Shown here: piece by piece, positions 808 to 31,428 of the stretch
Layout: each line of letters opens with the position of its first letter
Numbering within the stretch: position 1 is the stretch's first letter
Source: Schmidtea nova
Lineage: Eukaryota
Length of the DNA: 64,000 nucleotides
NCBI GenBank assembly: GCA_044892505.1
Contig: CM097882.1
Location: forward strand, 293,632,001-293,696,000
Direction: 5' to 3'
The notes under the pieces: model-generated
Database searches by the model: none
Seen by the model: the letters and a program-made list of their open reading frames with translations, nothing else
What the model was told of the DNA's origin: nothing
Program-made: the position numbers and the translations under genes

Positions 808-1866
808 CAAGGATTCGGAGCGGAGCGGAGCCCGGAGCCCTGTGCGGCTCCGGAGCGGATAATTTGCTTGGAGTAAAGAGCGGAGCAGTGAGTAAAAAAA
901 TTAGAAGGAGCGGAGCGGTTCCGCTCCGCGGTTCCGTTCCGCTCCACATTTTTTTAAAATTTCTTTTCGAAAACGAATGTAGTGTCAGTTTTGGAAAATT
1001 AGTGTAAGTTTTGTTATTTAGGTATCAATTCAAAATTTTTCTTGCCGGGAAAATGAAAAGTTTGCATGTTGGGTCCAAGGTATATAGATTGTTGGGATCT
1101 AAGTTTGTGTTGATGTGTCAAATAACAGCTAATTATAATCTGAAAATTTAAATGTTTTGATTTATATATATTTTGTTTAATTCAGTTTGAGAATTTTAAA
1201 TTATTTACTGTTTGTCTTTTTAAATAATAATATCCTTGGGTAAGTAAGTTTATCATTATCCTCTTGATATTTAGTTTCATTATTCTTCACTTTTCTTTAT
1301 AGGAAAAATATATGAATAATATAAAACATAAAAGTTATTGATACATATATATTTACATGAATTTATATGTAATGTGTAATGTGAGACACAAAGTTTAAAT
1401 AAATTAAAATTAAGAAGTTAAAATAAAGGTAAATTTAAATTAGTTATTTATTTATACTTTTACTATATTTTCATAAGTTTTTATATTTTGTTGGGCCCGC
1501 CAAATCACCTAAAAACACAATAAAACGAACAAAAGCATGAAACAATAAAGAAATAATAAAAATAAAAATAGCAAGAAAAACAAATTAAAAATAACAATAA
1601 AACGACAAATAATAATTGATAAATTTTCAGTAAAAGGAAATTTTGAAAATAAACCGGTAAACAACCGCAAAAGGGGGCCTGAAATAAGAAAAAATAGAAT
1701 TAAATAAAATAATAGTACAAATAATTAATTAATTACTTGGAAAATCAGGACCACCCAGCGAGAAACCGGAAAAGGAAACAAAATAATGTTTAGATTAGAA
1801 TAAAATAATAAAAATACTTTGATGGACGGCCTGATCCTGATTGGTCAATCCAACCAGACGGATCAG

Positions 1867-1874
1867 TATAAATA
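1867..1874 (+). promoter_or_regulatory. Candidate LTR TATA box (TATAAATA), with a candidate splice donor at 2002 (GAA|GTAATT)
   Basis: The same TATAAATA lies ~400 nt into the A LTR (38890-38897, minus), followed ~100 nt later by AG|GTAAAT (38789). Confidence 0.55.
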
Positions 1875-2995
1875 CCGATCCAAAAATCACAGACAGAGAC
1901 GTTTTACATTTTCACTCACAATCAAGACTAAACTTTGATTTGAGTAATAATTTTTGAAAGAACCGAACTTCATACAAGGAACCACACATTCAAGTACGGA
2001 AGTAATTTTTTTATGTTATCTTATATGATGTACCATGATTTTTATTTAATTAAAAGTTTATATGTAAACGTTATTTTATTTTTTCATTGATTATTTTTAT
2101 TGACACTTTAATGCATATAGCTATACTTCCTATGCTGCTCACGCGGCGAGGGAGTCCGAGTCGTCGTCGTGGGGCCTCAGGGTCTCACATGGCGGTTCAA
2201 CCTTTTTATTGTTTCTGGTTTTCATATTTAATTTGGTAGTTGAAATAATTAAATTACATCATTCAAATTTAACTAGATATTTATCAGCGAGATTAGAGAA
2301 TTTTAATGCTTATTTAGTCGAGTAAAATTTTCAGTCACAGAATATCGATAATGCGAATACGTCCAGACAGTTTTCTGGCGATAAGTAAAAAGTCATCATT
2401 TAGTTGCACAGAGGACGAGTGTCGAGGGCTAAATAGGGAGAGTAGCTGGGTAATGGGAGACACCCCAGGGTAGGGTGTATTCAGCATCATAACGCATAGA
2501 AAAATGAGCCTAATTTGAACCTCCAGCATGGAGAATAATGATAAATAAATAAAACTAATTCATATAATTTCGATAAAATGGAAAATTTCAATGAAGGTTA
2601 AAGTCCGATTTCATTCGGAATTAGTATCTCACCTACAGCGTCACCCGATCGATAAATACCGATCGCATTGGAATGCGACGGAGAATCCACATCAAGTCAT
2701 GAAACTCTAAAAATAGACCGATCGTCGTACATGGCGCGGATATCTAATTTATCTTCCGATCGCTGTATATAGCGCGGAGAATTTTCGAATAAATTTTATA
2801 TTTTCCTTACTGCTGTACATAGCACAGGATTAATTATGAACTCTTTATTCCGACCATGGTAGATCACGGCGGAGAGAAAGAAAATTTACCTTATTATTTT
2901 TAAGTAACTTTTGTGATTATATACAGTATAATTAAATTATCAACGAATTTTCCCCCCTTAACTCAGATATTTTATATCCAATAAATGTAATATAG

Positions 2996-3475
2996 ATGTC
3001 GACAGCTGAACTTATAAATCGATTGACTCAACTACGGAATATGGAACAAGTGAATCTGCGAAATGGAAATATCTCGCAGCTCAAGGATCTACCAGCATCG
3101 ATATTGCGGACCCTCAACTGCCAAATGTATAAGTGGCGACAGGGGTTTGGCCGAAAATGCCCGTTCTCGATATGGACAGGAGGGCACGACCAAATATTCT
3201 ATCGAGGAGGACCGAACTGGCCGATTTCTCAAAGGCCGTACTCGAACAAATTTGGCCGCCTTGTCGTACTGATCAAGGACACCGATGGACGGACAAGCCG
3301 TGTAATTTATTGGGGGCATATCCCTCGTCGGGAACTATGCCAACTAGGCCTACACGAATTCCTGCCACGAAAACCGTTCGGCAAGGAGTGCCAGAAAGGA
3401 CAACCCTCATTCTCTTGGGCTCGTCTCCGTCAGAAACCGATTAACAGCGAACTGCATAGCCTGTTTCGGAGATAA
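2996..3475 (+). CDS. LTR-encoded ORF1, unknown function (159 aa)
   Basis: ATG directly after a TAG acceptor-like site. Segment IKDTDGRTSRVIYWGHIPRRELCQLG aligns with FLDEQNRPRWLLSTGMMSGRALHQLG in the A LTR ORF 37174-37806. Confidence 0.6.
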   Translation: MSTAELINRLTQLRNMEQVNLRNGNISQLKDLPASILRTLNCQMYKWRQGFGRKCPFSIWTGGHDQIFYRGGPNWPISQRPYSNKFGRLVVLIKDTDGRTSRVIYWGHIPRRELCQLGLHEFLPRKPFGKECQKGQPSFSWARLRQKPINSELHSLFRR

Positions 3476-3661
3476 GAACTGATTGTCAAATCTTTAAAAG
3501 TTGTGATTAAATATTAATATTCAGCAGTGTTTTTGTTTTGTTGTTTGGAGTTTTAGTATTGTGTTTTTAATAATTCATATTCGTGACCTAATAATCCTAT
3601 GATCAGATTTTAAATTTCATATAATTAAATCATAGAGTAAATATCCTAAATAAATTATAGA

Positions 3662-4258
3662 ATGAATCCCGATTTGATGCAGAGAGAATTAGAAAAGATG
3701 TGGCGGATTCGGAGGGCCCAGGACAAGGAAGTGGGTCTCCTCAAGGCACAATTGATCAAAGCAGAGGCACAGATTGCATATTTGCGCAAAAGCTGGTTTG
3801 CTCCGGCCCGAATGAAGGAGCAAATCAGTAAAACCGAGCGCGCCCAACAGACTGCAGCCGAGTACCAAATGGAATGGGAGGCTACAAAGATAGAACTCCG
3901 AAAATGCCTCCATTCCGTAACTGCCTCATATATTGAGAGGGAGCTCAGAGAGCAAATCCGTCCAGTTACGTACCAAGCTTGGACATCAGAGAAGAAGACT
4001 TTGAATTCCATTGGTACGGATGTCGCAGATCTAATCGAAAATCGGAATGAGACAGCTCCTGCAGTAAATTCAACCACCTCATCGGTAAATGCGCACCAGA
4101 AACGCAAGCGCATTGGGCAGAAACGGCGGAGACAGAGAAAATTATTTGCCCAGCAATTACAAAGCCAAGTCGATGGTCTACATCAGATGACTGAGGAGGC
4201 ATTATTGACAGAGATTTTTCCTCCGGCGGGAGTTTTTACCGAACTCATTAAAAATTAA
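3662..4258 (+). CDS. LTR-encoded ORF2, coiled-coil plus basic NLS-like motif (198 aa)
   Basis: Homologous to A LTR ORF 36422-36985 (WFAPARMK/WFNPERVK; KRKRIGQKRRRQR/KRRNRLGAKKRRERR). Confidence 0.75.
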   Translation: MNPDLMQRELEKMWRIRRAQDKEVGLLKAQLIKAEAQIAYLRKSWFAPARMKEQISKTERAQQTAAEYQMEWEATKIELRKCLHSVTASYIERELREQIRPVTYQAWTSEKKTLNSIGTDVADLIENRNETAPAVNSTTSSVNAHQKRKRIGQKRRRQRKLFAQQLQSQVDGLHQMTEEALLTEIFPPAGVFTELIKN

Positions 4259-4498
4259 ATAAATTGTTGTATTGGCTTAAGAATTTTATCGTTCATTTAA
4301 ATTGATTTAATTAGCTTTACCAATGATTAGGTAAAGATAGAACAAAAGTATAAATTCATTTTACAAAATATCGAATAGAGATAATTAAATAATTAAGCGA
4401 GCATTCGTTGAAACACTTCTCGCAGACTGAGCAATAATAAAATTAAATTTTCTGAAAGATTAACGCGGAATACATAAGTAGATGATTAAAGCATAAGT

Positions 4499-4640
4499 CC
4501 TTCTAACGGCAGCGATGAACCCGTGAACATAAATGGGGAGTAGTACTAGCGATAGTGCTCACCTGCCCATCATTGTTCAACCACCCTGCGCATCACCAAC
4601 TTGATTATATAGGGAAATAATCAAGGGCGCTTGAGTGTAG
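4499..4640 (+). other. Conserved structured RNA element near the LTR 3' end (U5-like)
   Basis: Blocks CCTTCTA(A/T)CGG, G(A/G)ACCC and GCTCAC, a GNRA hairpin and an AA-bulged hairpin with a TAGGGA loop recur with compensatory changes at 36127-36257(-) and 55565-55697(-), and partly at 55331-55460(+). Confidence 0.65.
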
Positions 4641-4732
4641 AATTGCAATTTTATGCATGATCATGGATGGGGGATCCCTAGTCATTGTTAGAGCATTTTT
4701 CATCTAACCCCTCCATGAACCCAGCATAAATT

Positions 4733-4750
4733 TGGGGGCTCAGCCGGGAT
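4733..4750 (+). other. Primer-binding site, tRNA-Pro type
   Basis: TGGGGGCTCAGCCGGGAT versus the canonical Pro PBS TGGGGGCTCGTCCGGGAT; 6-nt TAAATT spacer after the LTR. Confidence 0.85.
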
Positions 4751-5067
4751 CAACTTCGTTTTATCGGAAAAATGTAAATGTAAAATCTGCAGAGAAGTTT
4801 AAAATGCTCGTGTCAATTAATTTAATAAAAAAAAAAAAAAAACAGAAAGGTCATAATTAAATGTAAATTATTGTATAAAAATTAAATAAACAACACGGCA
4901 GTGAACAAAAGTGAAGTTAAAAATTAAATGCATGCATAGATAATTTGTCGGGACGACAATTTTCGGAAACACGGGGGGAGTTAAATATTAAAAGATACAA
5001 AACGAAACATATTACTACCTTAAAAACGATAAAAATAACAGAGTTAAAACGATTATTTATTCAGTAA

Positions 5068-5529
5068 ATGGAGGAAAAACTGAAAGAAATTGAAGAATTT
5101 CTCAACACAGAAAGCGAAACATTAGAAACGATTGGCAAGAAAATAAACCGATTTAGAGAGACTGAATTTCAGGAACCCACAACACAGACTGAAGAGACGG
5201 ATGAGTTAATAAAGATAACAGAAAGAACAGGTAAAATCGACATAAAGACCCGCTACAAATGGTACAGAGCACGATTAGAAAATGCAGAACTAAACATTAA
5301 GTGCAGGCAAATAGAACAACGATTAACCCCAACATACAATCGATGGAGGGCGCAGGGGGTAGAAGCAGCGAAAAAATACCGACAGTGCTATATATGTGAG
5401 GATAGGGAGATACAAATTATGTTTTTACCTTGCGGACATTTTCGTTTTTGTAAAATATGTGCCAGCAAGCGCGACCTATGTCCTATGTGCAACCTGATGA
5501 TAGACGATAAAATTATTGTATATTTATAG
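5068..5529 (+). CDS. Leader ORF with C-terminal C3HC4 RING of IAP-like type (153 aa)
   Basis: CYICEDREIQIMFLPCGHFRFCKICASKRDLCPMC...KIIVYL at the extreme C-terminus. No BIR domain seen. Homologue in A at 35025-35483. Confidence 0.85.
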   Translation: MEEKLKEIEEFLNTESETLETIGKKINRFRETEFQEPTTQTEETDELIKITERTGKIDIKTRYKWYRARLENAELNIKCRQIEQRLTPTYNRWRAQGVEAAKKYRQCYICEDREIQIMFLPCGHFRFCKICASKRDLCPMCNLMIDDKIIVYL

Positions 5530-6005
5530 TAAATAAAATTTGAATGGAATTTTATTGATTTATTAATAATGAAATCATGGGTACAATTGTAATATATAAA
5601 TAATTTTTGAGCTACTACAAAGTAGTCCGATAAGAATCCATTGGGAGGTACCGATTGATCAACCTAGTCAGGGTGTATAGAAAGGGGCCCATCGCAAATG
5701 TTGGAAAGTTTTTGTGATGTGATTGATCACCACATCCTGCATTAATGGACCAACGCGATCTTTTTGTATATTTTGGTTGGGGAGAGAGATAGGGAAATCT
5801 TGATGGAGTAAAGCGCGCATAAGAAAAATAAATAAAAAGTTGAAGCAGACTGATCAGAATTTAGTTAGGATAGAATAGAGAGATAAATGACATTTTTGAA
5901 AGAATAGAAAGGTGCATAGTCAGCTCGCATAGAAGTAGTTATAACTCAGCTGAGAAATTTTAATCGCTAGCGAAGTAGGGAATTGTGATTAACCGGTTAA
6001 GTAAA

Positions 6006-6240
6006 GTTAGGAGATTTGTCCCTTGAAACAAAGGGTTAGGAGATTTGTCCCTTGAAACAAAGGGTTAGGAGATTTGTCCCTTGAAACAAAGGGTTATGAG
6101 ATTTGTCCCTTGAAACAAAGGGTTAGGAGATTTGTCCCTTGAAACAAAGGGTTATGAGATTTGTCCCTTGAAACAAAGGGTTATGAGATTTGTCCCTTGA
6201 AACAAAGGGTTATTAGCGGTTTGTCCCTTGAAAAAAAGGG
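6006..6240 (+). repeat. Tandem array, 29-bp unit x8 (GTTAGGAGATTTGTCCCTTGAAACAAAGG)
   Basis: Read directly; each unit contains a CCCTT-GAAACA-AAGGG hairpin. Confidence 0.95.
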
Positions 6241-6293
6241 TTGAGGCCAATGAGCCTTATTGAATGACCTAGCTAGGCGTTATGGAGAGATTA

Positions 6294-6630
6294 AACTGAG
6301 GCCAATAGAGCCATTTGAGAGATTAAATTGAGGCCAATAGAGCCATTTGAGAGATTAAATTGAGGCCAAGAGAGCCATTTGAGAGATTAAATTGAGGCCA
6401 ATAGAGCCATTTGAGAGATTAAATTGAGGCCAAGAGAGCCATTTGAGAGATTAAATTGAGGCCAATAGAGCCATTTGAGAGATTAAATTGAGGCCAATAG
6501 AGCCATTTGAGAGATTAAATTGAGGCCAATAGAGCCATTTGAGAGATTAAATTGAGGCCAATAGAGCCATTTGAGAGATTAAATTGAGGCCAATAGAGCC
6601 ATGGGAGATATAAAATTGAGGCCAGAAGAG
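6294..6630 (+). repeat. Tandem array, 32-bp unit x~11 (AAATTGAGGCCAATAGAGCCATTTGAGAGATT)
   Basis: GAGGCCAA recurs every 32 nt from 6298 to 6618. Confidence 0.95.
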
Positions 6631-7245
6631 CCATAGTGAATTATAGAGATATCCGGATAAATAGTAACAGGGGGAATATAGACCCATAGTGTAATCGTCG
6701 ACGAGATTTAGAGTAGTGCGCACTAGTAGTTAAGAGAATGCGAGTAAAGCTGATTATGCAACCTTAAGTAAAGCATGCAAGGAGAATAGTAAAAATTTGG
6801 GCTGACCGGAGCAACCGGCAGAATGAGTAAAACGATTGCTAACAGGGAATAATGAGTAGAGATGATAAAATAATGATAAACGAGTCAGAAAGACTCAGGG
6901 AATTAGAGCGCTCGAGCGACCAATAATTTGGGAAACTGTGGGAAAAGTAATCGATTTGATAAAACATAGATAATTATTACGACGTAAATAGATAATTGTG
7001 ACCAGTCTATAGATAATTTAAATAGACTAAAAATAAAGGGGAATCTGGGAATTGGGAGATAATGAAAACCCAGTAATAAGTAATCCCGAAAGAAAGGGAA
7101 TAAAAGCGCGACGATAACAATAATGTATCGTTGAGGACCTTTGTATTTTAGATATACAAATCAATCAAAGCAATCAATCAAACAAGAAGAATCAGAACAC
7201 GATAATAGATAGGACAAGAAAATTGATAATATAAAAGTAATCCAG

Positions 7246-19200: not shown

Positions 19201-22200
19201 GGACAAAACGCACTGTTAAGATACCTTTTGAAATTTACTTGTGATCAAAAGACATTACTAACCTTATTAGACAGAGGAAACATAAACATCACAAAGAATG
19301 AAGAAGAATACAAATTCGATAAAGAGAAGGAAGCCTTATTCAATAAGATTAGGAAATGGTGTGCGAAACCACTTGATAAACTAATAACATACAAAGACAT
19401 AAGCAATTTTAACGAGAAATACCAGACGATAGTAAGCGAATATGAGGAATTAGTAAAAATCTTAAACCATCCCGAAAAATGCAAACAGGTTTTAGAGAAA
19501 AAAGAAAGAGAAAGTAACAAGAAACTCACACCACTCTTCAAAGCAGAAGCACCATACCAAGCTAGACTAGATGCGATACAAGAAAAAGCAAAAGAATTGT
19601 TACCGGAATTCGAGAATAGTAAACATGCACTGGAAATACTCGGCGCATTAGTTGAAAAAGTACACGCATACGCAAAAGGAACATACAATGGTAACGACAT
19701 AGTAATAATAAAAAAGGAGATGCCAGTAACATTCCTATTACCAAAAGACGGAATAATGCCCATACATAGAGCTCTACGAAATGGCAAAGATAGGAAAGTA
19801 ATGGAAATTGCAAGAGTAATGCTAAATTGCGGAAGCAATATGAATATGATAGACGAGAAAGGAGATACACTTATGGTATTTGCAGCAAGGGCCAAAACGA
19901 AAACAAAGGTATTAGAAGAACTATACAAAGCAGGTGCAGGACTTACAGGAAAGACAGATAAAGATAATTCGATATTGGATGTAGCATTATTAACACACAA
20001 TTGGGAAATGGTCAATTTCATTAAAACCGTCCCAAATCAGGAAGAAATAGATCACCTAACTGATACGGTCAAGAAACCCAGTGTACTAGCAATGATGAAC
20101 AACGTCGAACTAACAGAATCAATACTTACGTGGATAAATCCTAATACTAACGAACCAGCATTCAGGATTAATAAGTTTACAGAACATAACCAAAACTGGT
20201 GTATAAGAAGTGCCTTAATAACGTATAAATGGCCAGAGATATTGAAGATGTTTATGGAAAGAAAGGATCTAAGAATCACAACCAGCCCGAAAGAAGAAAA
20301 ATACACAGGCAAATGGAAAGAATTGATGAAGACATACATCAACAATTGGATCAAGGCCAAAAAGGAAATCTTGGAACATAAATCCACTAACAAAGTAATA
20401 CCGGAGCAGGTAGAAACACAAGAATTTGAGGCAAGTAATCTAACGACATTAGCGTATGCGAAACTAATAGAAGAAATCAATGTCGAGGACGACATTTTCG
20501 ACGAGCCAGGGGGAGATGACAACACAGATAGTGACGACGATAACAACTCAGAAAATTCAAGCGATCACGAACCACCCGATAAAGAGGATAACGAGAGAAA
20601 AGACAAGAAACGAGACAAAGAAGAAAAGAAAAATGAAGACGAAAAACAAAAAGATGAAGATGGAGAACAAGGAAAAAACGACCAAGGAAATAAAAATGAC
20701 ACCCAAAGAACAGGGTATAAGTCAACCATAAAACCATTCTTCAAACCAGAATTACTATTACTAACAATGATTATAACGTTAATTAATCCAAGTCAGGGAA
20801 TGACATGTGAAGAAAGGGCAATAATACAAATAAAAAACGCGAAAGGAATCGAACGAGTATGTTGGTCGAAAAAGGACAAAACTACGGAACAAAATAGCCC
20901 GATGGATTGCAGAATCTCAAAACACGAGCAAGAGATCATAGAGATCAACGACCTAGATCTAGATACCTGGTACAAAATATGCACCGTTAGGAAACAAAAG
21001 CATCCAAGATCACACAACACAATCGCATGTGCAAAATACCAAACACCTAAAGCAGCCATGACAATACAACAGTCACCCAAAGGAGATTACATCATCGGAA
21101 AATGTGGAAGAACAGAGACACAGGGAACAGAAAACAAAAAACCCCAGGCAATAGATAAGCAAACAACACCAACCCTACGAATTACAATAGAGAGGCCCGA
21201 AACAAGAATTGCCACAAACGAAACCGAAAGAGTGTCTTACCAAATGGAAGTATTATGCTTAGCACTCATACTAATAATGATAAAACGATTAAAGGAAGGA
21301 ATAGAAATTGAAACTATGACAATAACAGAAGTAGAAGATACACAGAATACTAACATAAAATGTTGGGCGAGGAATAACGAGGAAATCGGCGTAAATGAAA
21401 TAAGGAAAAGTCGAAAACCAACAACGAATAAAGTAATTAAAGTATCCAAAGTAAAAGCAGATAAGACGTACAAACTATGCCTACTAGAAAAAGAGACAAA
21501 CAAGAAAGGTACCACAAAATGTAAAACATTTCAACCCGGAGAAGTAATAAAGTTCAGAAGGAGAACGAGGAAGAGAAATAAACAAATCAAGCGGAAAGTA
21601 AACATAACATTAGAAATAAAAGAGATAGAACCAAATGTGAAAGGAGTATGCTGGAGGAAGTACGAAAAGGAAACAAATAAAAGAACGACACCACAATGTC
21701 AAACAAGCACAGGAGCAACAACGATACAAATAAAAGGTCTAGAAAGTAAACAAACCTACGAAATATGTTTGGTAAAGAAAAATGATCAGATAACGATAAA
21801 CGACCTAGAATGCGGAATACATACAACTTCATCCGGAACAAGAACCAAAACGTTAACACGGAAAAATAAAAGGAAACAACGAAACAAAGAAAAACCGAAG
21901 TACACCACTACCTTTAAAAACAATAAACAACCAATAAGCCAGGAAGCTACGACAAAACCCGAGGGAAAGACATCAGCAACTCTAACATTATGGAAAATAG
22001 AGAATAAAACATTAGAAATATGTTGGATAATAGTTCAGAAACATATAAGAAGACAATCAAGAGAGTGCAGAAAAACAAATAAAGAAATCAAGATCGAAAA
22101 ACTACAATTTAATAGCGAGTATGAAGTATGTACAATAGAAAAAACGGACGCACTAGGAAACCAACAAGAAAGATGCGAAACCTACTATACACCAGCGAAC

Positions 22201-24189
22201 GCAACATCAAAAGGAATAACAAGGAAACTCGAATTCAGGGAACTAAGCCAAACGAATGAACAAATGGACGTAGAAAAAACAATAACCGACCCTCAAGCAA
22301 AATGGACACCCGAAGAAGTTATCAAGGAAGTCAAAAGAAAGCAAGAGGAACGGGAACAATTAATGAGAAAACTAAAGGGACAATACGGAATAATGTTCAA
22401 CCAAAGCGAATCTATACAAACAGACGAGAATAAAGAAATTAAAGAACTAATTGGCTTAGGAATATTAACAGCGACCATACCAGTAATAATCGCGTTATCA
22501 GCTATATGGATACGCAAGATAAACCCAAAGAAATCGGTAACCCAAGGGACAAATAGAGACAGTACAAGCCATGGAGTGGAAATGCTAGAAGAAGAAGCAC
22601 GAGAAGAACCAAAAAAGAAAGAAGCAAAAAGCGGAAAACTAGGAATAAACAACAAAGACAAGGAAATAAAAGAGATTAAAGGAGAAGAGAAAAAATATGA
22701 AAGGCGAACCAGAAGCCTACCGCAGAGTTCAAAATGGTTGGGTCTAACAATAATATTGACATTAATCAATAGGGAAGAAGCAACAAACCTACAAGCAGGG
22801 ATAAAAATAGTAAATGTCCAGGAGGTCGAGAAAATATGCTGGAATAGAGAGGATGAACCAATTGGGAAAGATAACCCACTAAAATGCATAATCAGAAAAT
22901 CCGACCAGGATATAGTACGAATAGAAGGGATGGACAGAGGAATCATGCATCGGATATGTATAATAGGAAAGGAAAAGAAGTCAGGGCTACCTAAGACAGT
23001 CGTATGCCAGAAATATGAAACACCTAGACTTGAATGGTATAGAGTAAAACCAACAAAGAAAGAAATCAAAAACACAATAGATCAACCAGCAACTCAGATA
23101 AGAAACACAACGGATAAACCAGGAGAAGGAGAGAAAAGCACCAATAAAACGAGAGAAAGAATATCACCCCAACAGGAGTGCGTATGCATAGCATTAATAC
23201 TAGCAATGTCCAAACGTATCGATAAAGGAATAATAATAGAACAAATGGCCATAACAATAAGGAAAACAAGTAGCAACAAACTATGCTGGGGAACATACAA
23301 CGAACCAAGGAAGGAATACCAAGTTCAGACAAGCGACGAATCACGAACAAACAAGGAAATCGAAATACAAGAAATACAAATGAATGAAGAAGGAAGTATA
23401 TGTATCTGGGAGAAAGGAATCCAAGAGGGAATAGAGCATTGCAAGACATTCCAAAAAGGAGAGATACTGAAATTCGATGAAGAAGAATTAACAAGGACAG
23501 AAAGAACTCTGACATTAACAGGACTCGATCAGACAGTTAAAGGAATATGTTGGACAAAGCATAACCCAGAAGGGGAAGAAGACAACCTAACCCACTGTAG
23601 AGAAATAAAGAATAAAGAAAAAGTCGAATTAAAGAAAATGGAAGTAAATAGGACATACGCGATATGTACCTTCACCAGAAAAGGTTCAGAAAAACCAGAA
23701 TGCGGATTATATCAGATCTCAGAGAAACTACAACAACAGATCGAACCAGGAAACGTGGAAAACCGAACAAAAGAAAATAACGTCAAACAACTACTAAACC
23801 GCCATTGGTCTACACAAGAAGTAATGAACAAAGTTAAGAGTCAAATACAGAAAGAGAAGAAGCCAGAGGCTCAAACCCAAAATGAGATAAAAGCGAATCA
23901 GAAGAAAATCAAAGCAACAAACCGTGGAAAAACAGTAATAGGACTAATCAGTATAGGAATATTAATAGCATATGGGATAATGACGACAAGCATGATAATA
24001 TATTGGAGATACAGAAAGAAAAACAAAGCGACAGCCATACAATGGCCAGATATTAAAATTATGAAGCAAAGAATAGAAATACCAGAAGAGATACAGCAAG
24101 AATTCCAAAGAAGAACGAAAGGTAAAGAATTCTGGAAACAAATAGAAGATGAAGAACGATACGAGGAAAAGACGATAATGATGGTATAG
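7246..24189 (+). CDS. Element B polyprotein (~5650 aa): Gag-UBLs-Bcl2-like-Env-PR-RT-RH-IN-ANK-FN3/TM modules
   Basis: Single stop-free frame from 7213 to 24189; first ATG only at 7723. Domains are listed separately. Confidence 0.97.
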   Translation: MRKGAKSVVIKPTEKKVGSNINKKDKTSTTTKKQKAGKDNPQGSKARKIIRDKSIIENDKLSVVSNSSSNKENQAEPKESQTSEIEVDETNNDNIEELESEVEQEVEINESDNDSIISDHEVIRETESDSSSSGTEDEHNNELETRGNESKITQDSGIEMSEPREEIKDKFSGEPFNGDASKLEIFLKEFGIFVEVCKWKAETTASRIQLYLKECALDLYLEAKNGTNPPADWPAIKDFFQQTFGINRVLSEAFIEFSMRKQKMNESNAVYASELKKLAKSVFKDGSPINEELMAAIFIGGLRRPDIRAQVGCQGCKTIDQALETANRFELHMIGSEGRIYLAMDTAQTEPEVNLNNHIPNSQQLNRPPPQRRNEGNKVQNFENQNNYNPQRQTKQCKTCGKLGHWQQECYQNLNCGKCGVKGHSESRCSTIICFNCGRPGHYSRNCGQKSNQRGNWQSNGNRPNYGNQANTVNRPDYGNQQVNNNNNQNKTTPKEIHLMQEVQRLTELINNTTRGNPQTNQQQISMMRKIESENERLNRESQARHAQEWARIQREDEQKQQERERQPLRINMLRATNQTDTREKETTLEMNSIDPNPADNESRKEIVQKDEEVEKETKKEVETEINQEGGKEIWKKGMMVIMPNDHMFRFQYNAKEKVEILFNKVNQMIPGVTKLPREAFLQIGDAPSVKLKLTDIWENVGVTETKRNVMRIKEIEPEEIPPPIRHETRIRRIFEGKMIRRRLKEIDELGKKMEKVEVIEDKSEPTQEIDKNEPEPTENIQGETNQTAHINMLRNTTREFSDEEEDSDISSLAGDILNESEDENKEREVIKTSEPTQIKVDEIQKLLDNSLEVIYNEEFMDKKQYRKFMKALLQMNYKEWLQDREVDMLNRYVGKLIEEPLLNYTISIIINTSTPRIWIKTPFTDDIYRWVEDRLGSSYKNKFIYSQNRLVKKRTHLVETGIWPGEITLLSICDEKEEENLQEVAREANTCFERRIKPRLEYEKERVLRKNLNFLIEQIIPQVKKHRKELMRSEYEKLKRCIECIRDTSHTRWSQISHDKLIAKMGKTMFRQGKITDLKISVELPNEDTKEIEVVADCTIKELINVINETLVQREPEDEWEDDIIIQYNEHVLWDHDERRLYKIGIWDNHQTIHVSRMDDTPRETAKDEKRERERRKEVVRKLQQIVEIYRNWRIWPEWENVLEQLNLNRRIRTPVEKQWNEKGKCWEPKEGEYEEEYKRGIEDDCEPEIGRVCMVTRKATPIDLDGPETAAMWLEREKQKTEEFVEILKTNEHGKRKLIKGLADFFVVNGEDITCLRKVAKAIAEYKRVNEWCPEQLDHVIRKWRNQEFSQEIPQKVHLRIIYPNKDKEELWVGIAEKIRDIKKKLRYEPPFHLQHQGRSLDNSLEIGITPAQLDLMNTLTVEAIAGQPLKRKEENHKPHGSISTPSPMKSVLTPGTSSRRSETTPRGTRERTPPQPYDVDEILTDSDDMIEELTELTREKDDNIFERIQELPTTIQVTNTGEAEVEEEIIIEEVNDLTEDETRGANVENVQLTQEMERWLEERANEPRDVTEETGRATRFVEIGTGMDKRPRGRPKTDPATVVIRNKDEKRQDQWELCLKKLNKIAEMKEKETTPICQGEEWISKTIMELLAIIDPELRKYWRITEISEKAKSLHSAIAPILPEFIKEKTKSNHLDWQGTTMLIKKLTEGAETDNKYVIAIAYTIYNLLTLSRGRPKPTALERHIKNTAKIIAREIEPYVINKGGWETFIKTNQKKTQAKNMKKKFEKILEELGKEQAGTGNAKSSMNLSAIIMMMLIWMISTDSATAFEVFDCDQMKLGEKYSLRGTEQCKDATPVELQKIKKEQWYHVYQEAELIKTMVNECKVQKTRFAFYCGRGHYSAIVMPGTEREPIVLQGEDCEALFKHGEVTTRDKIKIRGKPGMMMQQTYYVAGRITGGEGYCQGETYPIFGVPATNLVVMDTYIVELKSYEAFFEPTTGEMKTLSMCKIDRSMCQTGMSTLVYKPKVNECQLQLLQGAQFDEIQGKTFQEEDDDDKARAKHLKEALENKRQLKPDHREKRIEMRATPTVLITTNQDVGMRFIKGKATLKCSTTVYETNYPGIYVSKQEVPNAKPKIDTMDIKLHLYVNNKMDFLFHRGQASLQKVYYDLINNDCILNREILKTKLAVAITNPDSAMPLLPLREGHFGRVVGEAMYVYICEKTHASLAATTQLKPGTCTNELEIDYKGKVRYVQPVTRIINPPGFEPNPFNCSNAYGPLYQKPDGKWVMFPGRSEVIAPREFELMQLSKDRQFSDVDVSNNGIYSPKDLEAARQNILFPARREALLSNIVTITGGTNYQEGPNYELLLSPAHFKKATENMMKAMWGRFLIFGQMMAGILGVILIIQIVRVIITQMLACFDIYKREKKVNWKMVVGFLPFLAKTMVLHGHSKDIHRIKRLLKILAKMKGTDEEVGRKFKKIMDDEQARQQLKRERKGLWERMKGYKTQNDSSDDDDDDDDYKGGQVYKNQAPQYIEKNPADAWKCYAPPPTMYQEPLQGGKNSTMQMMPMTNVYPMIPEDYKMRRCRSVDPQGDTHTIAVMSSNTGPVLTTTIEINGREIEAMIDTGANISAIDIKWIPQEQRREIERTNVHVIACSKEVVEVAGRWWVKIRHLNTEIDTYVAVIPALSVPCIIGTDLMPALFKEIVIDLGTMRLKDRTGQICAIEAKVTSSKQMIIPARKEKICYVKIDPTIQGDMIFEPSKRFEKRKALPMARGLVNINDDGEIPINVVNFDEEDKIIYENERLGKLTPMMDIELPIEGAEKDKEPTWNIDSELLNEDQRKQLEKLLIEYKDIFAASDLDLGTCDVTLHTIPLTDETPIALRPYKLAEAQKAVAEAEVKKMLDAEVIEPSCSPWQFPVVMVKKKDGTQRFCIDYRRLNTVTKRDTYPLPDINEMLLTLQGAAYFTSLDLKSGYWQIKMKEEDKEKTAFTIGRDLYQFRKMPFGLTNAPASFQRCMNFVTHGIKQCMVYIDDLLIYSSTFEQHIQDIRDVFVRLRQWKLKLKPSKCDWAKEKVTFLGHIVSAKGKEPDPRNIDKVKECPVPKTITQIQEFLGLCGYYRKFIKDYAGIAKPIQELVKKDVSFIWGDEQQTAFETLRDKLITAPILVHPDFKKPFLLATDASGYAAGAVLGQYDDEGKERVIGYYSRTFKKHEKNYSVTEREALAIILAIKHFKYLLWGHIICITTDHQPLVWLGQHKETSSRLMRWAMQLQEYSPDIKFKSGRANANADCMSRLTFPELTDPDVQRICVLIAEDLDFSELKKDQQEDKELGQIIEFLTSRNMEVFKDNKELKEHIGKYQHRYIINKGWLLIQDGEKRLMCLPENRRKEIMIQYHDGKLGGHMSEKKTINRMRQKYYWRTMEEDIKEWIKNCLTCATRKDSGKKWKNPLQPMPIPAEPMTTIAMDVIGPLPESLNGNIYILVITDYLTKFPEAFAMQDQKAKTVAKILVEDICCRYGTPKQILTDQGTNFMSELLNEVTNYFRIAKLRTSPYHPQTNGQTERFNGTLIRMLSNYVSRHQTDWDEYIKLCLMAYRMSIHAATKLSPFQLMYGRECNMPIDLEYQPPLSQYMEDDDYVTKFKERMQEIWKTAELNIKFYQESYKDLHDQKKNVKANDLKPGDWVIIETPEIIPGTVKKLQRPGRGPYEIIYKKDNNVKVKLINRPLIRPIYVNTCRCKKVPKTITTTPENRIITRSQTARINMLRANATKGDKAEIRQKEIRNKEIILKAREIMGRWHVRDEAGISRDIRHIISRYAQGLPTEPIISELLEKIPEILLLKDVGGQPALHNAIECKNIERAKEFLKIAKETNQNLDVGNRKQETPLMTAAIHQADKEMIDLLIKAHFSWTERDREDKTVLNHVIWSSHQPMLKYIIANSTWEIDELVKGDIIKEAIKIGKCNTIRKLIKWKRPEDDTWVLDINEVYSEGQNALLRYLLKFTCDQKTLLTLLDRGNINITKNEEEYKFDKEKEALFNKIRKWCAKPLDKLITYKDISNFNEKYQTIVSEYEELVKILNHPEKCKQVLEKKERESNKKLTPLFKAEAPYQARLDAIQEKAKELLPEFENSKHALEILGALVEKVHAYAKGTYNGNDIVIIKKEMPVTFLLPKDGIMPIHRALRNGKDRKVMEIARVMLNCGSNMNMIDEKGDTLMVFAARAKTKTKVLEELYKAGAGLTGKTDKDNSILDVALLTHNWEMVNFIKTVPNQEEIDHLTDTVKKPSVLAMMNNVELTESILTWINPNTNEPAFRINKFTEHNQNWCIRSALITYKWPEILKMFMERKDLRITTSPKEEKYTGKWKELMKTYINNWIKAKKEILEHKSTNKVIPEQVETQEFEASNLTTLAYAKLIEEINVEDDIFDEPGGDDNTDSDDDNNSENSSDHEPPDKEDNERKDKKRDKEEKKNEDEKQKDEDGEQGKNDQGNKNDTQRTGYKSTIKPFFKPELLLLTMIITLINPSQGMTCEERAIIQIKNAKGIERVCWSKKDKTTEQNSPMDCRISKHEQEIIEINDLDLDTWYKICTVRKQKHPRSHNTIACAKYQTPKAAMTIQQSPKGDYIIGKCGRTETQGTENKKPQAIDKQTTPTLRITIERPETRIATNETERVSYQMEVLCLALILIMIKRLKEGIEIETMTITEVEDTQNTNIKCWARNNEEIGVNEIRKSRKPTTNKVIKVSKVKADKTYKLCLLEKETNKKGTTKCKTFQPGEVIKFRRRTRKRNKQIKRKVNITLEIKEIEPNVKGVCWRKYEKETNKRTTPQCQTSTGATTIQIKGLESKQTYEICLVKKNDQITINDLECGIHTTSSGTRTKTLTRKNKRKQRNKEKPKYTTTFKNNKQPISQEATTKPEGKTSATLTLWKIENKTLEICWIIVQKHIRRQSRECRKTNKEIKIEKLQFNSEYEVCTIEKTDALGNQQERCETYYTPANATSKGITRKLEFRELSQTNEQMDVEKTITDPQAKWTPEEVIKEVKRKQEEREQLMRKLKGQYGIMFNQSESIQTDENKEIKELIGLGILTATIPVIIALSAIWIRKINPKKSVTQGTNRDSTSHGVEMLEEEAREEPKKKEAKSGKLGINNKDKEIKEIKGEEKKYERRTRSLPQSSKWLGLTIILTLINREEATNLQAGIKIVNVQEVEKICWNREDEPIGKDNPLKCIIRKSDQDIVRIEGMDRGIMHRICIIGKEKKSGLPKTVVCQKYETPRLEWYRVKPTKKEIKNTIDQPATQIRNTTDKPGEGEKSTNKTRERISPQQECVCIALILAMSKRIDKGIIIEQMAITIRKTSSNKLCWGTYNEPRKEYQVQTSDESRTNKEIEIQEIQMNEEGSICIWEKGIQEGIEHCKTFQKGEILKFDEEELTRTERTLTLTGLDQTVKGICWTKHNPEGEEDNLTHCREIKNKEKVELKKMEVNRTYAICTFTRKGSEKPECGLYQISEKLQQQIEPGNVENRTKENNVKQLLNRHWSTQEVMNKVKSQIQKEKKPEAQTQNEIKANQKKIKATNRGKTVIGLISIGILIAYGIMTTSMIIYWRYRKKNKATAIQWPDIKIMKQRIEIPEEIQQEFQRRTKGKEFWKQIEDEERYEEKTIMMV
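7744..8586 (+). other. Gag capsid-like region plus three CCHC zinc knuckles (8434-8586)
   Basis: EPFNGDASKLEIFLKEF...FSMRKQKMNESNAVYASELKKLA; CKTCGKLGHWQQEC, CGKCGVKGHSESRC, CFNCGRPGHYSRNC. Confidence 0.92.
9157..11525 (+). other. Up to four ubiquitin-like (beta-grasp) domains separated by helical segments
   Basis: LKISVELPNEDTKEIEVVADCTIKELIN..IIIQYNEHVL..RLYKIGI (10477-10715) and HLRIIYPNKDKEELWVGIAEKIRDIKKKL..HLQHQGRSL (11320-11525) follow the ubiquitin pattern. Copies at ~9157-9380 and ~9960-10165 are weaker. Confidence 0.55.
12100..12570 (+). other. Bcl-2-like domain
   Basis: BH2-like YVINKGGWETF (Bcl-xL: WIQENGGWDTF) preceded by BH1-like LTEGAETDNKYVIAIAYTIYNL in an all-helical segment. 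Confidence 0.7.
12673..14490 (+). other. Envelope glycoprotein, class III fusion (chuvirus/gB-like) type, with internal signal peptide and TM anchor
   Basis: Signal MNLSAIIMMMLIWMISTDSATA|FEVFDC..YSL...C, matching the (A/G)YDC..SL...C start of chuvirus-like glycoproteins. Cys-rich ~550-aa ectodomain. TM FLIFGQMMAGILGVILIIQIVRVII (14413-14487). Cysteines conserved in element C env. Confidence 0.75.
15050..15410 (+). other. Aspartic protease
   Basis: AMIDTGANISAI at 15121; CIIGTDL flap/C-terminal motif. Confidence 0.95.
15850..17135 (+). other. Reverse transcriptase plus RNase H (Ty3/gypsy type)
   Basis: RFCIDYRRLN, YWQI, MPFGLTNAPASFQR, YIDD (16336), LATDASG, YSVTEREALAI, TDHQPL. Confidence 0.98.
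17400..18450 (+). other. Integrase (HHCC plus D,D35E)
   Basis: H..GGH...CLTC; D at 17638, D at 17818, E at 17926 (35-residue spacing). Confidence 0.97.
18770..20260 (+). other. Two blocks of ankyrin repeats
   Basis: GQPALHNAIE, QETPLMTAAI, DKTVLNHVI; GIMPIHRALR, GDTLMVFAAR, DNSILDVALL. Confidence 0.85.
20750..24189 (+). other. Two tandem paralogous membrane modules with FN3-like repeats (4+3)
   Basis: Repeated I.(G/D)L...(T)Y.IC motifs (IEINDLDLDTWYKICTV, IQIKGLESKQTYEICLV, IKIEKLQFNSEYEVCTI, VELKKMEVNRTYAICTF). Signal-like LLLLTMIITLINP / LGLTIILTLINR. TMs at ~22450-22510 and ~23935-24005. Confidence 0.65.
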
Positions 24190-24314
24190 GGGCGGATTAT
24201 GACTGTAAATAATAGTGTAAATAACAAAGCATTACCGTAATAGTATGGGTATCGATATTATAAAAATTGTAAAAAGATAGAAAAACAAAGTAAATGATGT
24301 ATATAATTTAGAAA

Positions 24315-24671
24315 ATGACCGAACAGGACGAAACAACTGAAATAACTATGGCTATGAGATGGAAGGCACAATGTGATTTATTAGTACGAACAGTCAACTC
24401 ATTACAGAACCAATTAGCGGAAAGACAAATGTTATTATCAGAAAGTTATAACAATTGTTTCGAACAATTACACAGAATAGAGGAACAACAAAGAGCGATA
24501 ACTGAACTCACCAGAGAAAATCAAACGATAAACAACACCAATCAAAGACAAGCAATAGAAATAAACCATTTAACACGAGGAGAAAGAGAAGGATCCGAAG
24601 AAGGATGGATGAGTTGGGTAATAAATAGATTAAACAACGAAGCGGAACCAGATTCAACGAATGAGCCATAG
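24315..24671 (+). CDS. Accessory coiled-coil ORF (118 aa), unknown function
   Basis: ATG 3 nt after TTTAG; heptad-rich; same codon style as the polyprotein. Confidence 0.7.
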   Translation: MTEQDETTEITMAMRWKAQCDLLVRTVNSLQNQLAERQMLLSESYNNCFEQLHRIEEQQRAITELTRENQTINNTNQRQAIEINHLTRGEREGSEEGWMSWVINRLNNEAEPDSTNEP

Positions 24672-24763
24672 ATAAATAAAGCGGAAAATTGTAAATATGT
24701 AAAAATAAAAACAAGAAAAACCAAAAATAAATGACAAGTCGAATGTATATATTATTGTAGAAA

Positions 24764-26140
24764 ATGGACAGAGAAGAACGAATAATCGAAATTTTGAGAC
24801 TAGAAAACAGAAAATGGAGTAAGAGGCTCACATGCGGGAAGTGTAACAATTTATTACGAGAACCCAGACAAACGATATGTGGATGTAGAATATGTACAAA
24901 ATGTATACAAGAATTGGATGCAACAGGAATAACAACATGCCCAGAATGTAAAGAAGGAGGAATAGTGTTGGACGAAACCAGAACGGACAAAGCAACCCAA
25001 AGAGAAATTATGAGCACCACAACGGAGTGCGTAAATACACCTTGTACATGGCAAGGACAAATAAGTAATCTGGAAAACCATATGGAAAAATGCGAGGAAA
25101 AGAGAGCCGAATGCGAGAAATGCCAACAGACAATAACTCTAAAGAAGAGAGAACAACACAAGGAAGAATGTAAAGAAGAAGAAATCGCATGCGAGTATTG
25201 TGAAGCCCGAGAAACAAGGAGAAAAATCGAAGAAGAACACTTGAATATAACAGAGGAGAAAGTATGCGGACAATATGTAAGTAAATGTCCAAACAATTGT
25301 GAAATAACAGAAGAAATAAAATTACATGAACATTGGAAACTATGTACCGAAAGGCCAAGAGAATGCCCATATAACAAGCATGGATGCAAGGAAAAGCGGA
25401 CGCGAAAAACAATGCAACAACATCTAGAAGAAGCAGCACTAACGCATGTGGAAATGACAAACGAAACGACTAAAGAAACGGAACGGACAATTCAGAAATT
25501 AGAAAAAGAAGTAGAATCACATAAAATAATGATGAGTTTACTACTAGAAACAAGAGAGCAGTTTGAACTAACTCGCGAAAGAATGGAAAAGAAAATAATA
25601 GCCATAGAAGAATTAGGAAAAGGAATGAAAATACAATATAATCAATTAATACGAGAAATTGACGAAAGAATGGACTTACCAATCGCACCTTACCTATGGA
25701 AAGTAACAGATTTCAGAGACAAATTAGCAGAAGCCAGAAATATGACGAAAACAGCAGTAATAAGCCCACCATTTTATTTATGGAAAAACGGGGTTAAAAT
25801 AAGATTGAAAGTATACCCAAATGGAGACGGAAGAGGACAAGGAACACACGTGTCAATATTCTTCTCACTATGTAAAGGAGAATACGATGACCTAATAGAA
25901 TGGCCCTTGAAAATAGGAGTCATTATAAGAATCAAAAGTACGGGAGAACCAGTAGAAAAGTTCTTTGAAACAGACAAACATTCGAGTACGAGCGAAAAGC
26001 CAACGACAGAATGCGGACTAGCAGCAGGAGAACCAATGTTTATAAGGAAAGAAAACCTATGGGAGCAACTATATGCAGACACGCTATACATAGAGATGGA
26101 GAGGCATGAGAAAGCAGACAGAAAAGGATGGTTGGCGTAA
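24764..26140 (+). CDS. Full-length intronless TRAF-family protein (RING, TRAF zinc fingers, coiled coil, MATH)
   Basis: CGKCNNLLREPRQTICGCRICTKC..CPEC; CPYNKHGC..MQQHLEE; YLWKVTDF..SPPFY..LKVYPNGDGRGQGTHVSIFFSLCKGEYDDLIEWP. Confidence 0.95.
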   Translation: MDREERIIEILRLENRKWSKRLTCGKCNNLLREPRQTICGCRICTKCIQELDATGITTCPECKEGGIVLDETRTDKATQREIMSTTTECVNTPCTWQGQISNLENHMEKCEEKRAECEKCQQTITLKKREQHKEECKEEEIACEYCEARETRRKIEEEHLNITEEKVCGQYVSKCPNNCEITEEIKLHEHWKLCTERPRECPYNKHGCKEKRTRKTMQQHLEEAALTHVEMTNETTKETERTIQKLEKEVESHKIMMSLLLETREQFELTRERMEKKIIAIEELGKGMKIQYNQLIREIDERMDLPIAPYLWKVTDFRDKLAEARNMTKTAVISPPFYLWKNGVKIRLKVYPNGDGRGQGTHVSIFFSLCKGEYDDLIEWPLKIGVIIRIKSTGEPVEKFFETDKHSSTSEKPTTECGLAAGEPMFIRKENLWEQLYADTLYIEMERHEKADRKGWLA

Positions 26141-26253
26141 TGAAGGAAGTAACCATGTAAATAAAATGTATAGAAACAATATGAATTAACAAATAATCAA
26201 AAACAATAAAAAATAAAAAATGATTAAATATTCTTTTATCTGTAATTATAGAA

Positions 26254-27315
26254 ATGGGAAATATAGAAGTAACCTTACAAGAAGTAACAGTACATCAAGA
26301 CGAAATGATCAGAAATCACATGGAGCGGATTGGGATATGGATTCATGCCTATTATCGAAAACAGGAGGAATTGGAAAGACAAACCCAAGCACTAAGAGAA
26401 GCCGAGAAAACGAATCAAAGAAGTCGAGAAAAAATAGAAGAAGTCTACAAACTGCTAAGGCAACAAAATGAATACTACAAAGAGATGATGAAAGAGCGAC
26501 GAGAGGATAGAGATAGACAACAGATAAAAACCGACCATAAGATTCAGTCAATCACAGAACAAGCAAGATATTGGAAGAAAGAGGCAAAAGACTCTTACAA
26601 GGAAGCAAGGGAGATAATAGAACGAACAGCGTACAGCGATGATTGGAAACTGTTTAAAGAGATCGATGAATTAAAAGAGGAATTAGGGCAAAAGATCAGT
26701 CAAGAAGCGTCAAATAAAGTATGGAGTAAGAAAAGACAACAATTTATCAGAGAACAAGCCAAGAAAATAAAAGAATTAACTTATCAAGTACAAAGAATGG
26801 GAGAAGATTTAGCCAATCAAGAACAATTAAAAGGTATGCTGACCGGAATGTGGAATCACAAGGAAGAAAACATGAAAAGAGACATAAATGGATATCAAGG
26901 AGTGATCACCCAGAAGAAAATAGAATTAAAAAGAACTAAAGAAAGAATGGAAGAAACGAGGCAGAATTATGAAGAGAACATAACAAATTTGACAAAAGAA
27001 AACGAAGAACTGAGAAAGAAGTTGGCAGAAAAACCAACACCAATAAAAGAAACAAGTATCACAGCAGCAGTGACCGAAATGATGGAGAAGGAAGAGAGAG
27101 AGAGAAAATTGGCAGAACTAGAAAAACAAATTGAAACCCTAACAGAACAGGCGAACTATCTGGAATACTTATTAGATGAAGAGATCCAGATATCCCACAC
27201 ATACCGAGAAGAAGTCGAAATGTGGAGGAGCACGGTAATATGGATGCCACTCCCCATAAATCAGGTGGAACCTCAAGACGAAGGTTTTTACGAACCCAAC
27301 GAAACCCTTGTATAA
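26254..27315 (+). CDS. Accessory long coiled-coil ORF (353 aa), unknown function
   Basis: ATG after TATAG|AA; charged helical heptads throughout. Confidence 0.75.
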   Translation: MGNIEVTLQEVTVHQDEMIRNHMERIGIWIHAYYRKQEELERQTQALREAEKTNQRSREKIEEVYKLLRQQNEYYKEMMKERREDRDRQQIKTDHKIQSITEQARYWKKEAKDSYKEAREIIERTAYSDDWKLFKEIDELKEELGQKISQEASNKVWSKKRQQFIREQAKKIKELTYQVQRMGEDLANQEQLKGMLTGMWNHKEENMKRDINGYQGVITQKKIELKRTKERMEETRQNYEENITNLTKENEELRKKLAEKPTPIKETSITAAVTEMMEKEERERKLAELEKQIETLTEQANYLEYLLDEEIQISHTYREEVEMWRSTVIWMPLPINQVEPQDEGFYEPNETLV

Positions 27316-27390
27316 ATGTGCGAAAACCAAGTGTAAATAAATTATGTAAAATAAAAAGTGTCAAGCTGTATTGACCGATGTATAAAAGAA

Positions 27391-27960
27391 ATGAGAAAGC
27401 TCGCAATAGCAACACTCCTATGGTTAACAACCATTACCCTACAGAGAGAAGATCTACAACTAACCGAAACCCAATTACGAGTTCTACCCGACAAAACCTA
27501 TCAGAAAGTAGACAGCCTAATCGAAGAAGTAATTAAAGAAATCAACGAATTCCGACAGAAATTCCCCCACAATCAAGATCGTCAAATCCAACAAATCTTC
27601 GATAATCAACAACTGAAACTAGAAGAAACCCGAAAAATCCGGAAAGAAGGTAGAGAACCCATAAAAAGCCTATCCCAAGCTGAAATAGAATATCAAGAGA
27701 AATGGATCATAGCAATCATCATAATCCTAGCAGTCAGCACAACTATCATCGCAATCACAATCCTGCTTGCCTCATATAGAATAAAAATCCTAAAACAAAA
27801 GCAGAAAATCTACAACCAAACCTCCAGACGAGATAACCGAGCTCAAAGACGAATAAGGAGCCATCTCAACCATATTCAAACCCACTACGAGCTACAAATG
27901 ATCAACGAGAGGACCCGAACTCAACCCCAAGCGAGCCAGACGATCGAACAAATTGTATAA
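27391..27960 (+). CDS. Accessory type I membrane protein (signal, helical ectodomain, TM, basic tail)
   Basis: MRKLAIATLLWLTTITLQ signal-like start; TM WIIAIIIILAVSTTIIAITILLASY. The ORF track starts it at GTG 27358. Confidence 0.7.
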   Translation: MRKLAIATLLWLTTITLQREDLQLTETQLRVLPDKTYQKVDSLIEEVIKEINEFRQKFPHNQDRQIQQIFDNQQLKLEETRKIRKEGREPIKSLSQAEIEYQEKWIIAIIIILAVSTTIIAITILLASYRIKILKQKQKIYNQTSRRDNRAQRRIRSHLNHIQTHYELQMINERTRTQPQASQTIEQIV

Positions 27961-31403: not shown

Positions 31404-31428
31404 ATTTAAATAATTTTCTTTACATAGA

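Follow-up and report, generated by a model that had tools for sequence, protein, structure and literature searches.

The 64,000-nucleotide (nt) stretch of Schmidtea nova DNA analysed here (contig CM097882.1 of assembly GCA_044892505.1, positions 293,632,001 to 293,696,000 of the forward strand), referred to below as the window, contains element B (1489-31403), which by its borders and coding content is a young Burro-type Ty3/gypsy element of a planarian-like genome. We propose that element B is probably organised in the manner of a complex retrovirus, with one leader, eight splice acceptors and one mRNA per open reading frame (ORF). A single promoter near the start of the long terminal repeat (LTR) would give rise to a long pre-mRNA, in which a non-coding exon of ~100 nt ending at a splice donor, D1, would be cis-spliced to one of the eight acceptors, each ORF, gag-env-pol included, then being the first ORF on its own mRNA. 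Each mRNA would end at a 3' site just past its stop codon, with polyadenylation separate for each, and the unspliced RNA, which retains the primer-binding site, would be the genome.

Element B has seven accessory ORFs: LTR1 and LTR2 within the LTR, a RING-finger ORF upstream of gag and, beyond pol, c1, TRAF, cc and the last ORF. For comparison, we collected from G000 full-length copies of the related family A, family W, which carries a BIR gene, and the small env-bearing families X and Y. The preliminary description of the window had claimed that accessory ATGs lie just after acceptor-like sites, and all six sites that it listed for B are present with their ATGs exactly where it placed them, the distances from YAG (Y, pyrimidine) to ATG being 0, 1, 3, 3, 3 and 2 nt. 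Its three sites in element A were also found, on the minus strand; one of them, TACAG|ACATG, exists, but belongs to the second in-frame ATG of the LTR2 ORF (36985, not 37021), a Met that protein alignment shows to be homologous to the LTR2 start of B. The proximity was compared with chance using 1000 dinucleotide shuffles of the 60 nt upstream of the first ATG of each ORF, counting YAG at ≤7 nt, a cut-off picked after the contexts had been viewed, and excluding gag ORFs. YAG preceded 21 of 25 accessory ORFs of the five families, with 3.98 expected, clearly above chance. Because the families are homologous, a pooled P value is overstated; B (6/7, expected 1.18, P 5e-5), A (7/7, expected 1.41, P 8e-6) and W (6/9, expected 1.11, P 1e-4) are each significant alone, and X and Y together gave 2/2 (expected 0.29, P 0.018). 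The background in B was 12/88 for other non-coding ATGs and 110/484 for coding ATGs. There were four misses. In the W LTR ORF and W TRAF, the Met aligned to the start of their homologues is the second in frame, and a YAG lies 1-2 nt before it; the W ORF o264 has a CAG 17 nt from its ATG; and the last ORF of B (27391) is preceded at 2 nt by AAG, an acceptor type found in 5 of 33 host introns, its homologue in A having CAG at 2 nt.

We scored donors and acceptors with a matrix derived by spliced alignment, with GT-AG forced, from 33 host introns at nine chaperonin loci. Seven B acceptors scored 3.0-5.7 (host leave-one-out quartiles, 3.0 and 8.0) and ranked 17-112 among 2368 AGs. Those of the 5' part lie on the plus strand before LTR1 (2974..2995, TAG, 0 nt before the ATG, rank 67), LTR2 (3639..3660, TATAG, 1 nt, rank 38), whose W homologue is used in the spliced copy described below, and the RING ORF (5043..5064, TTCAG, 3 nt with an in-frame TAA between, rank 44). 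Several A and W sites have low scores, and one YAG match in A, at the first ATG of LTR2 in copy L042, is a poor acceptor (-9.2). Among copies and homologues the base preceding AG alternates between T and C, and the AG-to-ATG distance ranges from 0 to 9 without frame preference. Such a pattern fits acceptors behind an upstream exon that is non-coding, and speaks against both stop-restart and in-frame fusion.

A genomic record of splicing was found in family W. Searching for the end of exon 1 followed by any base except G gave three matches; one (L110) was discarded as unrelated sequence, and the other two are both LTRs of a single W element at G000:C2:138.22 Mb. These LTRs, 1973 bp long and 100% identical, are bordered by a duplicated CTAC. 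Their bases 1-948 agree at 100% with an unspliced W LTR up to the GT of the latter, and the following base is the first past the AG of the LTR-ORF acceptor, from where the match continues at 97%. According to protein alignment, the ORF behind this acceptor is the homologue of B's LTR2. Reverse transcription of a spliced RNA would remove exactly the GT-AG interval from both LTRs, as observed here, and we read this copy as a reverse-transcribed spliced RNA whose donor was joined in cis to an LTR2-type acceptor. The junction, one in family W and within the LTR, shows cis-splicing there, and by homology D1 would be used in cis in B.

The corresponding sites of B are arranged in the order expected of a promoter, leader and donor. 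A reverse CCAAT box (ATTGG, 1840-1844) and TATAAATA (1867-1874) on the plus strand may together act as the promoter (1840..1874), and family A is arranged alike. Leader exon 1 (1897..2001, plus strand), placed from a predicted start ~30 nt after the TATA box, would be non-coding and contains no ATG; its W homologue is the exon seen spliced. D1 (2002..2007, plus strand) reads GAA|GTAATT, is followed by a T-rich tract and is the best-scoring GT within 1880-2400 of B, its score of 6.1 equalling the host median; A donors score 8.2-9.2 and W donors 4.2-5.4. A GT with a T-rich tail lies downstream of the LTR TATA box in A, B and W, and GTAA follows exon 1 in 16/17 variant B copies. Donor-like sites had been described 100-130 nt after the TATA box in both LTRs; they are present, at the similar distances of 135 nt (B) and 108 nt (A).

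Gag appears to have its own acceptor, TTTTAG (7130..7151, plus strand, rank 81), which the preliminary description did not list and which has homologues in A (TTTTAAG) and W (TTTAG). Between the predicted transcript start and 7151, B contains 93 ATGs, and the unspliced RNA is unlikely to be scanned. Downstream, 7152-7722 has no ATG in any frame yet has 170 open codons, each of which occurred in 0/5000 mononucleotide shuffles. The polyprotein frame gag-env-pol (7213..24189, plus strand), identified by Pfam profile matches, has its first ATG at 7723; a candidate non-AUG start, AAA ATT G (7222..7224, plus strand), lies three codons after an in-frame stop. The same arrangement, in which AAA or ATA and then ATT G come within a few codons of an in-frame stop, is found in B, A, X and Y; family W does not keep the ATT-start frame. 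Judging from this conservation, Gag probably starts at AUU in four families, giving an N-terminal extension (window 7213-7722; L023, L035, L042), and the gag-env-pol mRNA would be spliced and distinct from the genome RNA. In X and Y no ORF precedes gag, and 6/7 copies lack any ATG for >630 nt upstream of it; these families would not need a gag splice. An AUG supplied by a spliced leader (SL) at TAG|GAC (7212) was considered and rejected, being in frame in B but not in A.

The four ORFs of the 3' cassette are preceded by gaps of 125, 92, 113 and 75 nt, in agreement with the 75-125 nt of the preliminary description. All are on the plus strand. The spacer before c1 (24190..24314) has twin TGTAAATA at +15 and +27, no AATAAA and the acceptor TTTAG ending at 24311 (rank 112); that before TRAF (24672..24763) has twin TGTAAA at +19 and +27, AATAAA and TGTAG ending at 24760 (rank 17); that before cc (26141..26253) has TGTAAATA at +16, TGTATA at +27, AATAAA and TATAG ending at 26251 (rank 109); and that before the last ORF (27316..27390) has twin TGTAAA at +17 and +30 and the weak AAG acceptor ending at 27388. 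All 15 same-strand 3' ORF spacers with acceptors in families A, B and W measured 46-263 nt (≤300 nt). TGTA(A/T)A starts 15-21 nt past the stop in 14 of these 15, with a second at 22-30 nt in 12, and is strongly enriched (43 seen, 3.4 in shuffles). It matches the Pumilio element UGUAHAUA (19 seen, 0.5 expected). A motif just beyond the terminating ribosome suits a cytoplasmic site in a 3' untranslated region (UTR); alternatively, the twin UGUA may act in 3' processing. Under either reading, each spacer would be the 3' UTR of its own mRNA. A role as generic host poly(A) element was rejected, since the available text of PMC5068929 reports no UGUA upstream of planarian poly(A) signals and any TGTA occurred in 3/11 host CCT 3' ends. 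TGTAAATA as local donors scored 2.8-4.8, with T before GT in only 2/33 host introns, and were judged weak.

Several observations weigh against the proposed organisation. The W junction is the sole one, in one element of one sister family; its unspliced parent LTR, combining this exon 1 with this ORF, is absent from the loci fetched, and the sequences flanking the junction correspond to different LTR variants among those sampled. Both breakpoints are preceded, at 7-8 nt, by a 7-nt identity, a crossover in which would retain the last bases of the intron; the W copy is without them. Equivalent searches with the exon-1 patterns returned spliced copies in 0/17 cases for B (16 continue with CGTAA, one is a point variant) and in 0/26 for A, where 22 have an intact GT, three of the other four were inspected and are not junctions, and the matched text of L072 is that of L071. 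The acceptor-side pattern of A LTR2 had no match in the genome search. For junctions to RING, gag and the 3' cassette, which remove the primer-binding site, absence from the genome is expected. The matrix was built on just 33 introns called by an in-house script with GT-AG forced, the acceptor of B's last ORF is weak (rank 882 of 2368), and AATAAA shows no enrichment within the 3' spacers, with 22 seen against 17.9 expected (p 0.18). Introns of the host are short, with a median of 50 nt (n=33), whereas splicing from D1 to the cassette would have to span 22-25 kb and pass several poly(A)-like sites. Internal deletions were examined as possible splice records and rejected: of nine breakpoints (five in A, three in B, one in W), all within ORFs or the LTR, none coincides with a mapped acceptor, and the five in A have overlaps of 12-21 nt; at two more candidate loci the sequence did not reach the breakpoint. 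Four contig runs of unrecorded kind over 14000-31450 covered 30/30 bins, and among the 15 joints and the loose ends listed none fell at a donor or acceptor, which is no evidence either way. The earlier proposal of one short 5' exon spliced to many acceptors is supported directly by one exact W junction, seen in both LTRs, and further by the conserved gag acceptor; at the other acceptors it remains a prediction. D1 is very likely used with LTR1, RING and gag, and its use with the 3' cassette across 22-25 kb is given an even chance or slightly better.

The 3' cassette, four genes in A and B and six or seven in W, is where the most serious alternative departs from this organisation. D1 cis-splicing would again serve the LTR ORFs, RING and gag, with AUU-initiated Gag translated from a spliced RNA that is not the one packaged as genome, but the host SL would resolve the array of apoptosis and ubiquitin regulators as a true operon, cut after each ORF under guidance of the twin TGTA(A/T)A and re-capped by SL at the same YAGs. 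We regard this as possible but doubtful. The A and B spacers of 73-125 nt match flatworm operon spacing, which in the available texts has a median of 99 nt in S. mansoni (PMC12582326) and peaks near 100 nt in Macrostomum (PMC8629364); SL trans-splicing is reported there for Schmidtea mediterranea, with cis and trans acceptors often shared (PMC12582326), and the gypsy element Cer1 of C. elegans has an SL1 site, according to the part of PMC3315495 consulted. The 3' spacers are also unlike the 5' ORF ends, twin TGTA(A/T)A being present in 14/15 and after none of B's three 5' ORFs. However, compact terminal exons predict such spacer lengths equally, a working cis donor exists upstream, as the W copy indicates, and the spacers, rich in A, do not have the U-rich element known from nematode SL2 operons. 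Every accessory ORF examined has its own ATG and AG-to-ATG distances are frame-free, although a flatworm SL, which ends in a terminal AUG, can supply the start codon. An alternative start codon from the SL is mentioned in the portion of PMC12582326 available to us.

An internal promoter after the polyprotein stop, driving the 3' cassette with local splicing or none, is improbable for B. It would explain X and Y, in which the stretch from pol to the accessory ORF contains ATTGG plus a TATA-like box, a donor (GTAAT) and an acceptor, and an internal promoter is described for env of Oikopleura Tor3b/4b in the text available (PMC4402516). A and B keep TATAAAA 53-56 nt before c1, but this motif also fits a weak poly(A) signal, and as a promoter it would start transcripts ~25 nt ahead of the c1 ATG, in the presence of upstream ATGs and leaving no space for an exon and intron. 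The nearest 300 nt in B and 900 nt in W contain no CCAAT box, and the acceptors of TRAF, cc and the last ORF are left unexplained; an internal promoter fits A, B and W poorly. That there is no splicing, the sites being stop-restart or ribosome-entry signals or AT-rich chance, is highly improbable: TAG doubles as a stop codon, the RING context is TAAATG and ATGATGTATATAAT(T/C)TAG before c1 can be read as a 5-codon ORF in A and B, but homologues exchange TAG for CAG and not for TAA or TGA, the short ORF before TRAF is not retained in A, YAG enrichment is far above shuffles, and the splice recorded in the genome contradicts it for the W LTR ORF.

Element B measures 29.9 kb, marginally below 30 kb, with an internal region of 23.4 kb, in agreement with Burro totals of ~30 kb or more and internal regions of up to 25 kb. 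It has the Burro features of TG...CA LTRs, a target-site duplication (ATTT, 1485-1488 and 31404-31407), a primer-binding site and the order protease, reverse transcriptase, RNase H, integrase. All of its features lie on the plus strand. The 3238-bp 5' LTR (1489..4726) is 99.88% identical to the 3' LTR (28165..31403; three substitutions, one indel), which holds second copies of the promoter, donor (28678), LTR1 (29673) and LTR2 (30339). The primer-binding-site-like 18-mer (4733..4750), presumably complementary to tRNA-Pro, recurs after the LTR in A and W. LTR1 (2996..3475, 159 aa) has no Pfam match and is followed by ATTAAA and a GT-rich tract at ~3507-3545; LTR2 (3662..4258, 198 aa) has AATAAA overlapping its stop; and the RING-finger ORF (5068..5529, 153 aa; PF13920, E 5e-12) has AATAAA immediately past its stop. 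Tandem repeats of 29- and 32-nt units (6006..6634), within the predicted intron upstream of gag, are a candidate packaging region. The polyprotein comprises, in order, a CCHC knuckle, a Monjiviricetes fusion protein (PF24664, E 1e-71), protease, reverse transcriptase, RNase H, integrase and ankyrin repeats, the fusion protein sitting in frame between the CCHC knuckle and the protease (RVP), as does the mononegavirus-type fusion protein of Burro between gag and protease. Behind it lie c1 (24315..24671, 118 aa; 33% identity to its W homologue), the TRAF-like ORF (24764..26140, 458 aa; zf-TRAF and MATH), the coiled-coil-like cc (26254..27315, 353 aa), also with a homologue in W, and the last ORF (27391..27960, 189 aa), with two hydrophobic stretches and no Pfam match. 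B thus has the ankyrin, MATH/TRAF and RING domains of Burro. Sequence searches for a BCL2-like domain before env gave no Pfam match in B and no relevant match to PDB sequences for 12100-12600, and an Rfam scan gave 0 matches. The Pfam scan found no BIR domain in any B ORF, one being present in sister family W; lacking a BIR-RING (B-IAP) gene, element B is by its gene content a Burro but not Burro1. Near-identical B copies are numerous in G000 (40 scored of 434-1194 candidates); at L001 (G000:C3:133.83 Mb), tandem B elements have one LTR in common, with all donor and acceptor sites within 10 kb.

The LTR2-type ORFs of A, B and W share a conserved arginine-rich motif near the C-terminus (window 4100-4150), making the LTR2 protein a candidate Rev-like export factor; homology searches with LTR2 found no homologues. 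The ORF type with this motif is also the product of the one splice recorded.

The window shows three levels of nesting, B lying in a small inverted-repeat element with GGAGC repeats (811-1488 and 31404-31743), which in turn interrupts the gag of element A. The 5' part of A, a related Burro family, occupies 31744..38990 on the minus strand, and its gag continues at 1-810; its TATA box is at ~38897, the donor at ~38789 and acceptors at ~37816, 36988, 35487 and 32573. Family W, a relative of Burro, has a high copy number (of 1295 BIR candidates 150 were scored, mostly with the same ORF length), with copies at G000:C1:253.26-253.29 Mb (L085, L086, L089) and a solo LTR in the window (51264-55541) flanked by an ATAT duplication. 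Besides a gag-protease-ankyrin ORF it carries as many as nine accessory ORFs, TRAF and BIR-RING among them; since reverse transcriptase, integrase and fusion protein had no match among the ten W ORFs scanned, W is probably non-autonomous. X and Y (L023/L024, L035/L036) are 15-16 kb gypsy elements with 860-bp LTRs, env between gag and pol, and a single accessory ORF of 470-480 aa that matches no Pfam family and has its own promoter-like site and leader intron; they are possibly simple relatives of Burro. Elsewhere in the window are the host CCT4 (TCP-1 delta) gene (49056-50720, minus strand), with three introns of 47-51 nt, and a perfect 160-bp inverted repeat within a transposase-like remnant (47807-48130). 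CCT paralogues at L101 and L103 are followed ~45 nt past the stop by a same-strand ATG of similar frame, with TAG 7 nt before it, and may each form a host operon. A partial chaperonin domain (profile positions ~347-488) occurs in dozens of G000 copies, often 4.6 or 5.4 kb apart, which suggests a CCT piece captured by a mobile element. Host MATH/TRAF-domain genes are densely clustered near the end of C2 (G000:C2:405-455 Mb), a possible source of the captured TRAF ORF.

Complex retroviruses (HIV-1, HTLV and foamy viruses) and the adenovirus major late unit use one 5' leader and major donor with many acceptors; the former keep unspliced RNA as the genome, and in adenovirus the acceptors are also matched with poly(A) sites of their own. 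In contrast to complex retroviruses, B is a Ty3/gypsy element whose LTR contains the donor, upstream of the primer-binding site, whose gag is itself provided with an acceptor and whose ORFs each seem to end at a 3' site of their own; B would work alike without being a member. Burro or GYPSM1 elements are described, in the text seen of PMC6431247, as giant elements of the Ty3/gypsy type present in Schmidtea mediterranea and Dugesia tigrina that resemble B in being ~30 kb long, with an in-frame fusion glycoprotein between gag and pol and ankyrin, MATH/TRAF and RING domains, and whose accessory ORFs may be separate or fused. Compared with that description, B has a separate downstream TRAF ORF and two ORFs inside the LTR, and BIR occurs only in sister W; accessory ORF expression is not treated in the Burro text of the same source. 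Cer1 also produces spliced mRNA, found both carrying and lacking the host SL1 leader, but it differs in having one spliced product, an unspliced gag-pol mRNA and no accessory gene array (PMC3315495, in part). In Oikopleura Tor elements, env is expressed either as a splice product of the LTR transcript or through an internal promoter, resembling the contrast between A, B and W and X and Y, but there is only one downstream gene (PMC4402516, in part). Flatworm and nematode SL operons likewise have same-strand ORFs ~100 nt apart with an acceptor just before each ATG (PMC12582326 and PMC8629364, in part), whereas here an upstream cis donor is shown to work, in family W. The literature searched, which did not extend to the main Burro studies (Grohme et al. 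2018, Lee et al. 2026), contained no description of Burro splicing; the element class is already known, and the expression scheme was not found described there.

Burro elements are abundant in planarian genomes, and the present analysis supplies exact donor and acceptor coordinates together with a genomic record of a working LTR donor. B-IAP of Burro1 is said, in a second-hand summary of the work of Lee et al., to protect stem cells during regeneration. The summary is found in the available part of PMC13465017. Our comparison suggests that a gypsy lineage may have independently arrived at the gene regulation of complex retroviruses, and that a reusable module of acceptor, ORF and short 3' end may allow new genes to be added easily. 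Non-autonomous families that carry genes, such as W, would also be favoured if the gag mRNA and the genome RNA were separate.

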